From the NCBI RefSeq assembly GCF_001677475.2, contig NZ_CP012498.1: a stretch of 64,000 nucleotides of DNA; one strand, given 5' to 3'. Position numbers: made by a program. Origin of the DNA: Escherichia coli. GTDB lineage: Bacteria > Pseudomonadota > Gammaproteobacteria > Enterobacterales > Enterobacteriaceae. Below are positions 39,001-45,000 of the stretch, one piece after another. Numbering within the stretch: position 1 is the stretch's first letter; each line of letters opens with the position of its first letter.

Positions 39001-42000
39001 AAACATATCCCCTGACAGAATTAGGTCTTGCCCGTAGCAGTTATTTTTATCACTGTGCTGCACTGAAGGCCGGCGATAAATACGCCACGATACGTACGAT
39101 GCTGACAGATATCTTTAACAGTAATTACCAGTGTTATGGCTATCGTCGCTTACATGCGATGCTCAGGCATGAGGGGGTACGGCTATCAGAAAAGGTTGTA
39201 CGCAGACTTATGGTGGAGGAACAGCTTGTCGTCAGCCGTAACCGTCGTCGCCGCTACAGCTCATATTGCGGAGAAATCGGACCTGCTCCGGATAACCTTA
39301 TCGCCAGAGATTTTAAGGCGGAGCAACCTAATCAGAAATGGCTGACAGATATCACGGAGTTCCAGCTCCCTGCAGGTAAAGTCTGGCTGTCACCGGTGGT
39401 GGATTGCTTCGATGGAAAAGTTGTGAGCTGGTCTCTCAGTACACGCCCCGATGCTGAACTGGTCAACACTATGCTGGATAGCGCTGTCGAAACGTTAAAT
39501 GCTGGCGAACGACCGGTGATACACAGTGACAGAGGTGGGCATTATCGCTGGCCAGGCTGGCTGGAAAGAGTGAATGCAGCAGGTCTTATTCGCTCAATGT
39601 CCCGTAAAGGATGTTCACCTGATAATGCCGCATGCGAAGGCTTTTTCGGCAGACTGAAAACGGAAATGTATTATGGGCATAAATGGTCGGGCATCACGCC
39701 AGAAAAGTTCATGCAGCAAGTGGATGCTTACATCAGATGGTATAACGAGCGGCGTATAAAATTATCGCTGGGTGCCGTCAGCCCCAAAATGTACCGCCAA
39801 CAATGCGGGCTGGAATGATAAAGCAGTCCAGGAAATTGTCCGCAGCCCCATTTGAAGTGCGCCCCAATAGTTAGACACCAGATCTGTAACTGAGGAGCGT
39901 ATGAGCAAATTTTCATTAGAATTCAAAAGGGAAGTATCCGAAAAATACCTGGAAGGTGAGCTGAGTTTGAAGTCTGTTGGAAAAATGTACAATATTGACC
40001 CCAGCACGGTAAGGAAATGGGCTTATGTTTACCGTAAGCACGGATTAAAAACACTGACTGGGCAAAAAAGACGTTATGACGATAACTTCAGATTGAATGT
40101 GGTCAGAGATGTTATTGATAATTCTCTTTCTATAAGGGAAGCTGCAGTGAAGTATGGGATCCCTGCTTTTAACACCATATCCAAATGGATTAAAAAATAC
40201 AGTGAGGTTGATTTTTCGATGAAGGGACAAAAGGAAGATTTGAGGCCGAAAACTCCTGCTGTTTATCAACGAAGTCGTTCGACACAACTGACAATCAGTG
40301 AACGGGAAGAACTTGAGTTGCTGAGAGTTGAGAACGCTTATCTAAAAAAGCTGAAAGCCTTAGCTCAGGAAAAATTACGATTGGAACAAAAGAAAAAGTA
40401 ATCATTATTAATGAGTTAAGGCAATGTCATCCATTATCACAATTACTGGTTATCGCGGATTTGCCACGTAGTACATTTTACTATCACGTGAAACGCCTTA
40501 ATGCGCCAGATCCATATCAACTTGTTAAACAAGTAATATTGAGAATATACCATCAGCATAAAGGGCGTTATGGTTATCGACGCATCAGACTTGCCTGCCG
40601 TAACGAGGGCATTTTACTTAATGGTAAAACCATCAGAAAGTTAATGAAGGAACTGGGTATCAGCTCACTTATCAGGCGCAAGAAGTACCGTGCCTATCGT
40701 GGAGTACAGGGGCGAACTTGTAATAATTTACTGAAGAGACAATTTTATGCTGACCGCCCAAATCAAAAGTGGGTAACAGATGTCACAGAGTTTAAGGTCG
40801 ATGGCAGGAAGCTCTATTTATCACCAATCATGGACCTGTATAATGGAGAAATAGTCTCATATAACCTTACTGAGCGCCCATTAGCATCAATGGTAAAGAG
40901 CATGCTATTAGATGCGGTAGAACAACTCAATAAAGACGATAAGCCCTTGTTGCATAGTGATCAGGGGTGGCAATATCAGATGCCTCGTTGGCAACGTTGG
41001 TTGAGTGATAATGGCATAACACAAAGCATGTCCCGACGTGGTAACTGCTTATATAATGCAGCAATGGAAAGCTTTTTTAGTACTTTAAAATCAGAATGTT
41101 ACTATCTAAATAAATACAATAAGTTACATCATCTAAAGCAAGATATAATTGATTACATTGAATACTACAATCACCATCGCATTAAAGAGAAACTCGATGG
41201 CATGAGTCCGGTTCAATATCGACTTAAACATTTTTCATAGGATGTCCAAGATTTGGGGCGCAGATCAATCCAGTCTGCATCCCAGAAATGGAAGATGTCG
41301 TTGAAGGACTGGTGTATGGCAATGAGCCGCTTGATTATCGAGTTCGGTGACCGCTTGGATGCTCACTTCTGAGAAAAGGTATTTACACAGAATCTTGAAC
41401 AGACTCTTGGCGTGGGAAAATTTCCGAATTCCAGGCGGCCCCCTTTATAATCTCGCCAGAGGGAGAATGAGATACGAACCGAATTGCCCTCTTCTGGCAG
41501 GACTGGTATATCTGTTGCCTGTAACTGTGGCATATATATGGGCTGGATAATAATGAATCAGCAGAATAATATAAAGAGAAATTTTTTACAATCGTTACGT
41601 AATACAACAGTGTTGTTACTCGATATTGCTTTAATTGAATCACTTAAGACTATCAATAGTGATCAAGAACAAATAAAAAATTACTACAGATTACAGGCTC
41701 ATATTTTCTTGAAAGATTCGAACCAGGTAACTCTGTTAATGGTGAAATAATTATACGTGCTTTGAAAAAAGATAACCTTGATGAGGATTTTATAATTAAC
41801 TTACTAACCAGAATAAAAGACGACAAATTTAGTGATACTGCTATAGATTTAACTAATGTCCTGGGTGCAATGAAAGAGTTTGTGAAAGAAGAACTTAGAT
41901 ACTACATGTCTTTTGAATCCAATTTTGAAGACTACTATATGCCTCTGATTAGCAAAAATATGGATTTTATGCTTGATTATGAAAAGTACATGAGGGATAC

Positions 42001-45000
42001 GATTAATTTAATAAACAAAAGCGCCCTGTCAGATGAAGAAAAAGAAAAAATGCTGCAAATAACTTACTTTTCATATGCAAGAACCATTGCAACTTATGTA
42101 GACTCTGCTTCAAAGGTATTTATAGAAGGTGCATATGGTATTTGTCATCTATATATTCTGAAAAAGATACTCAAAAATAAAAAAGTTCCTGAAAACATAT
42201 GTCGTATATTCAGAGAAGATTTAAAAAAAGCCAGTAAAAAAAGTATCGGGAGTGTTAAAAATATCCTGGAGGATTTTTTTTATTATCCTGATACTATTTA
42301 TCATTCACCTGACAGAAATAAACTGGAGGGAATGTATGATATATATAATGAGTTTGTTAAATGCCGAAATGAAATAGTTCATGAAAACATCGGTAAAATA
42401 GATACATTTAACTACATTATGACGTATTTTAAAGTATGTAATGATTTCCTCGGTGATATTTTTAATGAATTTTATTCAGGGGAAGCTCAGGACCTCTTAA
42501 TTGAAAATATTATTCATCTTTGTCTGAAGGTTACTAACGAGCGTAGTGATATACTGGAGAATTTATGTAAAAGTAAAAAAATCACTACCTGAAATGGTAA
42601 GAAAGATAAAACCATCCAGTTTTTGAACATCAGAAGGCAAAATCCATGACAGATGACCTGCCCCGCCAGTCTGGTTCAGGAATATAATGCGCAATTGTCA
42701 ACCAGGGGGCTGTCTGAATATCGAAAATTATTGTACACCAGGTCCACTTTTTAATCAGTTGTTGGTTCTCTGTAAAGTGCCTGAATTCGGCAAACCTGCG
42801 AAGTGCTGTAGCCCGTTGCATCTGCTGTACTACGTTCAGGTTGTCGCCTGAATCATTTCGGTGGGGGCCTGCTTTAACGGGCGGCCCCTTCTTCACTAAA
42901 AAGAGTTTCACGACATAGCGGGGAAGCTTTCTTCTTTGGGGGCGGTTTCGTTTATGGTGTTTAGCTGAACAGGCCATGACAAGCTGCTGCAGCCGTCAGG
43001 CTGCCTGTCCGACTTCAGTAACATCTGATTCAAATGAACAGCAACGAAATTATTTACTTTTACTGTCAGTTCTTTTAATTAAAATACCATTTTTATAGGT
43101 GACAGAACAAAAATCCTTATCAAATTTATCCAGCGGCGGAGGACCATCAGGAAAAAGTCTCTGTAGTAGTACAGCTGTCTGAACAGGTCCAAACTTGTCC
43201 AGGGCATATCCTGTTGCCTGAGGCGACATTTTGCTGAACACCTCATTAATATAACCTTTGACATACACCTCAGGAAGCAGTCGGGATAAACGGCAAACAA
43301 AACTGCTGCCTCCACCATAAGCGGAAAAACATGAAACAAGTCTTATGCAATGTATTGTCTGTAAATCCACGACCGTCTTAAGCCAGTCATGCAGCATTCC
43401 GGGACTATAAAGAGCATCACCAACGCAAAGCCCACCCTGACCACTTTTATAGGGACTGCCATGAACATCAATATTTAATCTGACATTACCTTTATGCATC
43501 TGCTTATATATTGTCAGAGGTGATTTTGTGTGATAAATGAACTTTATATCAGTCATTGGTTTTTTCATAACATTAATATCTCTTTATAAAATATTTTAAA
43601 CACTAATGTTCAGACAGCTTTACAATATATCACAACCAGCCATTACTGCAGTACACATTCAATGCGCCTACTGTTTCAGAAGGTATGCGAACGCATTTGC
43701 TGTCTCCGGAGTTCGCCCGGAAAACGAAATCTGTGGCTCAGCACCGATTTTGATGATAAGCCTGTAACCGACATGCCCCTGACGTCGGGTGCTGGCCGTC
43801 TTTATCCTTGTTCCACTGAATGAAGAAACGTTTTTCCGTTGGATATACAATACAGAGCCTGCATACAGTATCCTGTGTTATTTTTGCTCAGGTTTATATT
43901 AATTTATTACTGCATATTATTAATGTCGGAAATGCCTGGGTTCGTATGAATACAGATATTAGCAATAGTAAATAAAATACCTGTTTTCTTTATTTAACGG
44001 TTCTGCACAAAAAACACAAAGGGTTCTCTCTCGTGACTGTTTTCCTCCCTGAATGATGGTAAAGTATTTATATTTGTGGTAAGGTTAATGCCGGAAGCTG
44101 GTGAATGGAGGTTTACTTGCGCATGATATAGTGGCATCATCTGCCAGTGCAGAACAGCTAAAGTAAATCATGAGCATTCTTTTATGAATGACAAAAGAAT
44201 GGATGTATCAGATGAAGAAGAGATATATATCGGAGCCAATGCCTTATACTGAGGATATCAGATATCTTTACCGATGGGATAGTCGCCCGCCTGAAGTTAT
44301 AAATAAAAGTGGTTTTCAGGGGGCTGTAAATGTATATTTTAATATGTCATTTGGGATGAGGACTGTTTTTTGCTCAGCCTCTTTGAACGGGTCTGAATAT
44401 TATTTTCAGGAACTGGAAAACGGGATGTCATCATACGGGGGGGGATACTTATTACCTGTATAAGATATATTCACTAGGCTTGCCTGCTGTTAAAGTTTAT
44501 CAGTATAAAAATAATGCTGGTTTTGTAAAACAGTTTTCGACAAGATTTCCAGGTGTTGAAAATAAGCTTATGGATAAAGAACATGCAATGCCATCATTCG
44601 CTTTGTTATCAAGATTTAATAATTATATAGATAAAGTTGCAGTTTATAATGAGGAAGTTCAGTTGTTAGGCCCGGTATTACCATGTCGCATTACATTCTT
44701 ATTCTCCCATAAATTATCTCAGAAAGCAATTAAAATAAGAGATAATGAAAAGAACGATTTATTGCTTAAGCAGACTGATTTTAAAAACAGGCTCATCAAA
44801 AGACGAACCCCCTGGAGATGTATATAAAGTTATGAAAATTATATCCGTTACGGGAATTACTGTGCTGAATACAGAAGATGTTCATTTCTTTTCTGATTCA
44901 TCTGAGAAGAAAACAGGTCGGTTCTATTTAAAAAAACAACCCGGTAATTATAACTATCCTGTCCGGGGAAGTATTCCTTCATATAAGTTAATGCAGGCCA

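Follow-up and report, generated by a model that had tools for sequence, protein, structure and literature searches.

The 64,000-nucleotide (nt) stretch of Escherichia coli DNA analyzed here (contig NZ_CP012498.1 of RefSeq assembly GCF_001677475.2; hereafter the window) carries at 41553-42592, on the plus strand, what reads as a single frame-broken gene for a protein with a HEPN-type domain. We propose with moderate confidence, and by analogy with characterized HEPN proteins, that the intact 346-amino acid (aa) product is a self-contained sensor-plus-effector abortive-infection (Abi) ribonuclease (RNase), whilst the copy in the window is probably an inactive frameshift pseudogene. An initial annotation had described the 3' part of this gene, a 276-aa open reading frame (ORF), as a candidate Abi-type or toxin nuclease with a HEPN-like R-x(4-6)-H motif, and had regarded an 88-aa ORF directly upstream as either its frameshifted N-terminus or a small partner. 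The present analysis adds a merged gene model, proof of the frameshift allele and a family-wide cI-int-HEPN arrangement; the domain call itself is not new, since the names given to the protein by the NCBI Prokaryotic Genome Annotation Pipeline (PGAP) and UniProt already include 'HEPN domain-containing'.

A single 346-codon gene carrying a frameshift

The gene and its parts in the window are as follows.
41553-42592, plus strand: whole gene, 346 codons in intact relatives, probable frameshift pseudogene in the window
41553-41750, plus strand: N-terminal fragment ORF of 65 aa, comprising 42 native residues and 23 out-of-frame residues before a stop codon
41484-41750, plus strand: 88-aa ORF, equal to the 65-aa fragment ORF with an upstream extension to a TTG at 41484
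41675-41680, plus strand: A6 run where intact alleles have A7; this 1-nt deletion shifts the frame after codon 42
41762-42592, plus strand: 276-aa ORF with a TTG start, corresponding to native residues 71-346
41444-41552, plus strand: conserved upstream region of 109 bp, presumed promoter and 5' untranslated region, shared with other plasmid copies

Both ORFs of the initial annotation are present, in different frames and each with a TTG start, and the very low GC content ascribed to them was borne out (29.3% for 41553-42592 vs 45.1% across the window). Alignment with two intact plasmid copies (5080-6120 of locus L001, from AR_0015 contig NZ_CP024864, and 6108-7148 of locus L003) located a single missing A in a homopolymer, A6 vs A7, at alignment column 236. 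When one A was restored, a 346-codon frame opened from the ATG at 41553 to the stop codon at 42590-42592 with no further lesion, and the real N-terminal piece is therefore 65 rather than 88 aa long; on sister contigs a 65-aa ORF is called at the position of 41553-41750. The exact 276-aa product together with the upstream 65-aa stub ORF was present on at least 18 contigs, whose NCBI and Logan short-read assemblies are independent of one another, indicating that the frameshift is real and not a sequencing error. The alignment indicates that loss of an A at codon 43 has split one 346-codon gene into the 88-aa and 276-aa ORFs. Of the two suggestions made earlier for the 88-aa ORF, that of a frameshifted N-terminus was correct, the pieces joining in frame after one indel, and that of a small partner protein was rejected, the ORF consisting of the native N-terminus and an out-of-frame tail. 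For the 276-aa ORF the HEPN assignment stood but its status as the gene did not, the functional unit being a two-part protein of 346 aa that is frameshifted in this copy.

The upstream region contains a sole promoter-like match, at 41527-41554, which is weak and does not score above shuffled sequences, and the TTG at 41762 is preceded by no well-placed Shine-Dalgarno sequence, a GGTGA lying 16 nt upstream. The window allele is regarded as a probable null because this TTG has no evident ribosome-binding site and no stimulatory structure follows the A_AAA_AAT sequence at the lesion. Most likely it yields no more than the 65-aa stub, perhaps along with a product truncated at its N-terminus, and is a null allele inherited clonally as passive plasmid cargo. 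For annotation, both ORFs should be merged as parts of a single frameshifted pseudogene, which should not be counted among the active toxin or defence genes of the plasmid.

A HEPN-type domain in the intact protein

Features of the domain, numbered by residues of the intact protein, are as follows.
41924-42475, plus strand: approximate HEPN-type domain, residues ~125-308, with inferred helices H1 (125-156), H2 (161-197), H3 (255-276) and H4 (283-308) and an inserted helical segment (199-243)
42365-42382, plus strand: R272-N-E-I-V-H277, predicted catalytic motif of the form R-x4-H
42080-42115, plus strand: second conserved patch (preceding long helix), with R177 invariant, T178 near-invariant and D184-x3-K188

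A search of Pfam with the restored protein gave one match, to HEPN_RiboL-PSP (PF18735; E 1.8e-5, 25 bits, residues 191-306), and the 276-aa ORF alone matched the same family at E 1e-5. From PADLOC only the Cas13a HEPN model was matched (E 0.005, residues 203-294), and one homolog matched HEPN_MAE_28990 (E 3.5e-3). No HEPN chain was recovered when sequences of the Protein Data Bank (PDB) were searched with the protein and with a family profile. With one partial Pfam match and few other database matches, the assignment by sequence is real but marginal. Nor does the motif alone prove much, since 36% of shuffled versions of the protein contain a bare R-x4-6-H and 1.8% the stricter R-[ND]-x3-H. The encoded RNEIVH, recognized as a HEPN signature in the initial annotation, is nevertheless meaningful because none of its R, N and H varies among 19 homologs, the most divergent of them at 18% identity. 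In this alignment F139, R177, R272, N273 and H277 are invariant, and [DE]184-x3-[K/R/N]188, within helix 161-197, is conserved.

An AlphaFold2 model built from the family alignment was all-helical, with a mean predicted local distance difference test score (pLDDT) of 86.7 and a predicted template modelling score (pTM) of 0.86. In the model R272 and N273 end helix 255-276 and H277 is the first residue of the following loop; in described HEPN domains the motif sits where helix 3 ends and the loop starts, and a second motif, 'Ex3[KR]', is present (Anantharaman et al. 2013, PMC3710099). The features by which the HEPN superfamily is recognized, namely an R-N-x3-H motif, a four-helix up-down bundle with an insert between helices 2 and 3 and an acidic motif in helix 2, were all found in the predicted protein. 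Foldseek in whole-chain mode found nothing significant in the PDB and, in AFDB50, matched only the protein's own family, with template modelling scores of 0.81-0.82 to members of 23-25% identity. The N-terminal region of ~120 residues is also all-helical in the model and has no detectable relative. Its interpretation as a degenerate second HEPN repeat was rejected, as hhalign comparison of the N- and C-terminal parts of the family alignment gave a probability below 2%. Taken together, the predicted structure and the conserved motif support an intact protein with a HEPN-type four-helix C-terminal domain following an N-terminal helical region.

Family distribution and decay of alleles

Among 1.84 billion cluster representatives the family numbered 27 at E<0.001, about ten of them full length, and was confined to Enterobacterales (Escherichia, Enterobacter, Pectobacterium, Cedecea and Xenorhabdus); a profile search to enlarge the family added no new clades. 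By megablast, 29 PLSDB plasmids carry the gene block, and it also occurs, nearly always plasmid-borne, in 58 of 5,426 complete E. coli genomes. The copy in NZ_CP024864 is an intact single coding sequence of 1,041 bp that PGAP names 'HEPN domain-containing protein', and an intact copy of equal length on pCFSAN004180G is annotated 'hypothetical protein'. All alleles have 27-33% GC, with ratios of nonsynonymous to synonymous substitution rates (dN/dS) of 0.13-0.42, and are, judged from their sequences, under purifying selection.

Broken copies were also observed. The pWS0115A copy is interrupted at an A run at gene nt 672 and the pTD225C4 copy at A runs at nt 672 and 731, whilst a lesion at the A run at nt 1030 of the pOkiPb01695_1 copy alters the last few residues only. 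All indels in the five copies compared (loci L002-L005 and the window) lie in poly-A runs, at gene nt 123-129, 672, 731 and 1030. Tracts of A6-A8 are numerous in the AT-rich gene and appear to be the chief route of its decay.

Genomic contexts in prophages and plasmids

Six of six divergent prophage homologs (45, 42, 31, 24, 24 and 23% identity) directly follow int in a 186-like (P2-family) prophage, share the strand of cI and int, and either start 2-24 nt past the int stop codon or overlap int by 8-14 nt; at two loci (L027 and L031) the HEPN start codon overlaps the int stop. At most loci host genes follow the homolog. At L013 the phage genes that come next are ogr and D, and the HEPN gene therefore lies between int and the attachment site (att). 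This layout is as expected for a gene on the lysogenic cI-int transcript, suggesting co-transcription. The int-att interval of P2-like phages has been described as a minor hotspot for defence, where 3% of P2-borne systems are found (2026 preprint, 10.64898/2026.02.27.708500). At L013 a 317-aa ORF on the opposite strand (7523-8476), with no Pfam or PADLOC match, is located between the HEPN gene and ogr and is a second cargo gene in the int-att region. A conserved downstream partner in prophages was sought and rejected, downstream ORFs varying by locus and giving no PADLOC match, and no tRNA was found at the prophage junctions.

On plasmids, one IncFII slot, bounded by repA with an adjoining ParE toxin-antitoxin (TA) pair and by stbB/parM, holds a 52%-identical allele, and the window-type allele is found in the same repA-to-parM neighbourhood. 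In AR_0015 a distance of ~1.4 kb separates the intact allele from a DUF4238 fragment and from ppl, an anti-phage gene. Upstream of this allele, at 1019-4284 of locus L001, ppl and the DUF4238 fragment are accompanied by an AAA ATPase and an exonuclease fragment, the region being a small, partly decayed defence island. Across 12 plasmid and prophage contexts there was no conserved neighbour, no MNT gene and no ParB-family neighbour. Tandem Repeats Finder (TRF) and Rfam searches near the gene revealed no tandem-repeat RNA and no relevant Rfam match, and an RNA antitoxin or type III-like repeats were accordingly rejected.

Proposed function and mechanism

In the mechanism we favour, the intact protein would be produced constitutively (in prophages, through the lysogenic cI-int transcript) and would be held inactive by its own non-catalytic region or by its oligomeric state until a product of an infecting phage switched it on. 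HEPN domains from two protomers would then form a metal-independent RNase site, and this composite site would cleave host RNA, the likeliest target being tRNA anticodon loops, which HepS and ApeA also cut, so that translation would stop before phage maturation. We infer the RNase activity, RNA target, trigger and defence role from genomic context and by analogy. The candidate Abi or toxin role put forward in the initial annotation fits these contexts, namely the 186-like int-att end, the IncF variable slot and, on one plasmid, the vicinity of Ppl and DUF4238, and the family is a reasonable candidate defence gene. A more specific possibility, which we advance only tentatively, is that the intact family is a new single-protein anti-phage system outside PADLOC 2.0: a 346-aa sensor-HEPN nuclease acting on anticodons or mRNA, co-transcribed with cI and int at the 186-like int-att end and captured by IncF plasmids, in which the N-terminal region would recognize the phage trigger and A-run frameshifts would provide cheap on/off shedding of a costly suicide gene.

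Several observations weigh against reading the intact protein as an Abi RNase. The PF18735 match is partial, covering model positions 85-188 of 191, and precomputed matches are flagged 'weak'; only 1 of 19 family members matches PF18735 at E<0.001; and NCBIfam gave no match, PHROGs nothing at E<0.5 and PADLOC only the weak Cas13a match. Among 20 PLSDB plasmids with a tblastn match, two copies are frameshifted and four are fragments only, and the frameshifted or partial state of six of 20 could equally mean that the gene is dispensable. No copy of the gene was detected by tblastn in 50,697 deposited phage genomes, and a literature search by accession numbers gave no match in the library covered.

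Were the intact protein an Abi nuclease, it would provide a ready handle both on the int-att cargo slot of P2/186-like prophages, which has received little study, and on the variable slot beside the IncFII replicon. Its small size, lack of a partner and natural null alleles make the proposal easy to test.

Alternative explanations

Among other readings, the one that survives best, and is still unlikely, is that the protein is an addiction or TA toxin stabilizing the plasmid or prophage, held in check by an unrecognized small-protein or RNA antitoxin and having no role in phage defence. Among solved structures, HepT-type HEPN toxins from TA systems come nearest, frequent decay suits a costly toxin, and the IncF slot lies among maintenance genes, the ParE TA pair directly upstream of the 52% allele and stbB/parM downstream. 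That pair, however, is missing from the AR_0015 and pCFSAN contexts, and neither an MNT gene nor any other neighbour is conserved in the 12 contexts. In prophages the gene starts no more than 24 nt from int, or overlaps it, and is followed by host genes, and the vicinity holds neither tandem repeats nor an Rfam RNA.

It is improbable that the frameshifted allele is still functional, as an attenuated or phase-variable gene, either by producing a free HEPN domain from the 276-aa ORF or an internal ATG at 41870, or by -1 slippage on A_AAA_AAT (41675-41681) giving low levels of a full-length K43N protein. The deletion does create a canonical X_XXY_YYZ slippery heptamer in the zero frame, the remainder of the gene has no further lesion, the allele persists in at least 18 assemblies and the lesions of other copies all fall in A runs too. 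Downstream RNA structure is nonetheless not above that of shuffled sequences (z -0.35), leaving a programmed -1 frameshift at this site unsupported, and there is no Shine-Dalgarno-like stimulator upstream. No ribosome-binding site is suitably spaced from the TTG at 41762, a run of only six or seven A is short for a phase-variable gene and loss of ~70 N-terminal residues would probably destabilize a protein predicted to be compact and helical (pTM 0.86).

Equally doubtful is a HEPN-like domain that is no defence nuclease but serves the mobile element, by processing or stabilizing the cI-int transcript or modulating integration and excision, or that acts as a non-catalytic binding module. The tight coupling to int, with overlapping start and stop codons at L027 and L031, is in keeping with such a role, and some HEPN domains are non-catalytic binding modules (PMC3710099). 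Against it, plasmid alleles have no int or cI nearby, the R, N and H of the catalytic motif are invariant and most 186-/P2-like prophages do not carry the gene. With 27 representatives and no deposited phage genome containing it, the gene is therefore accessory rather than core lysogeny machinery. A homopolymer sequencing error in a plasmid whose gene is really intact, suggested by the position of the lesion and by indels at other A runs in other complete assemblies, is very improbable given the identical 276-aa product and 65-aa stub ORF on at least 18 contigs that come from many independent assemblies.

Mobile elements surrounding the locus

The gene was earlier placed just outside a Tn3-type terminal repeat, and this position was upheld, the repeat ending at 41443 and similarity to gene copies on other plasmids beginning exactly at 41444 (at 41474 in AR_0015).
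41406-41443, minus strand: Tn3-family 38-bp terminal inverted repeat (IR), outer GGGG end at 41443, transposon interior to the left

The reverse complement of this repeat is GGGGGCCGCCTGGAATTCGGAAATTTTCCCACGCCAAG, which starts with GGGGG, finishes with ACGCCAAG and is identical to the Tn1721 IR at 26 of 38 positions; comparison with the IRs of Tn21 and Tn5393 gave local-alignment scores of 12-14. A 41-nt stretch at this end repeat recurs in other plasmids. On the 3' side, similarity stops at 42600 in one plasmid group and extends into a resolvase fragment in another. Within the window a near-identical copy of the end repeat is present at 4876-4908 in the same orientation (32 of 33 positions identical); another copy, partial and inverted, lies at 49239-49262, coinciding with a Tn21-like IR at 49240. 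The IRs at 41443 and 49240 point away from the intervening 7.8-kb segment, in which the HEPN pseudogene lies.

Upstream of the end repeat are a remnant of the IS256 family and two insertion sequences (IS) of the IS3 family. The IS adjoining the locus (39852-41268) has 26-nt end repeats and two ORFs (166 and 259 aa), and a 100% identical inverted copy of 1,416 nt is located 17 kb upstream at 21757-23172; this inverted pair could permit inversion or behaviour as a composite unit. The second IS (38258-39850; 1,593 bp, 26-nt end repeats 96% complementary) lies back-to-back with the first and has a partial inverted copy of 903 nt, 96% identical, at 32429-33331.

Downstream of the gene, two Tn3-type 36-nt inverted repeats 123 nt apart form a 195-bp IR-IR unit at 47122-47316 that contains no transposase and looks like a Tn3-derived miniature element. 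A 196-aa ORF at 46084-46674 matches EspK/GogB type III secretion effectors in their C-terminal part only (model positions ~259-445 of 454) at E 1e-27, yet far under the family cut-off, and probably represents either a piece of an effector or a divergent paralogue carried by the plasmid. A short ORF at 44188-44463 contains YRWDSRPPEVINKSGFQG, which we take to resemble the N-terminal motif of the A subunits of ADP-ribosylating toxins; an NCBIfam search of this region gave no match. The ORFs around it, 44480-44827 and 44745-45455, overlap in different frames, as if frameshifted too.

Comparison with known HEPN systems

Two characterized single-protein systems offer the closest parallels to the proposed mechanism. 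ApeA, which has an N-terminal region of unknown ancestry and a C-terminal HEPN domain, is inactive until triggered by deoxydinucleotides, whereupon it cuts tRNA anticodon loops (10.64898/2026.01.26.701840). ApeA proteins are ~560-600 aa long, with N-terminal and Mid domains, and assemble as doughnut-shaped decamers (Gao et al. 2020; 10.64898/2026.01.26.701840), whereas the intact product of the gene studied here has 346 aa; the ApeA models of PADLOC gave no match to the 346-aa protein and Pfam HEPN_Apea reached only E 0.14.

HepS, a HEPN 'solo' Abi protein of the Salmonella prophage Gifsy-1, is likewise inactive until triggered, in this case by siphovirus tail-tip proteins, and cuts tRNA anticodon loops (PMC13043305). 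The likeness lies in a prophage-borne HEPN protein with no antitoxin, apparently expressed in the lysogen, and the 346-aa protein is proposed to follow the logic of HepS, which stays off until a phage protein activates it. HepS (STM14_3211) differs in being a tetramer of chains shorter than 250 aa with a single HEPN domain and an R100-H105 motif (PMC13043305), whereas the 346-aa protein has an extra N-terminal region of ~120 aa. No sequence similarity between the two was detectable in the PDB sequence and profile searches, which returned no HEPN chain.

PF18735 (RiboL-PSP-HEPN), a family distantly related to AbiD/AbiF (PMC3710099), is the sole Pfam family matched; R-N-x3-H is kept, and it is from this family that the PGAP and UniProt names derive. 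Its hallmark, fusion to endoRNase L-PSP or an operon with ParB (PMC3710099, Table 1), was not seen, there being no other Pfam domain in the protein and no ParB neighbour in the 12 contexts. The HepT/MntA type VII toxins (PDB 5yep, 7ae2 and 8xdj) are minimal HEPN proteins of ~130 aa whose neutralizing antitoxin is an MNT nucleotidyltransferase encoded next to them, whereas no MNT gene lies beside any family member and sequence identity to the 346-aa protein is 3-8%. By the tests applied, the predicted protein falls outside ApeA, HepS and HepT/MntA and belongs only marginally to PF18735. Should the intact protein prove to be an Abi nuclease, it would represent a third single-protein HEPN defence architecture, after ApeA and HepS.

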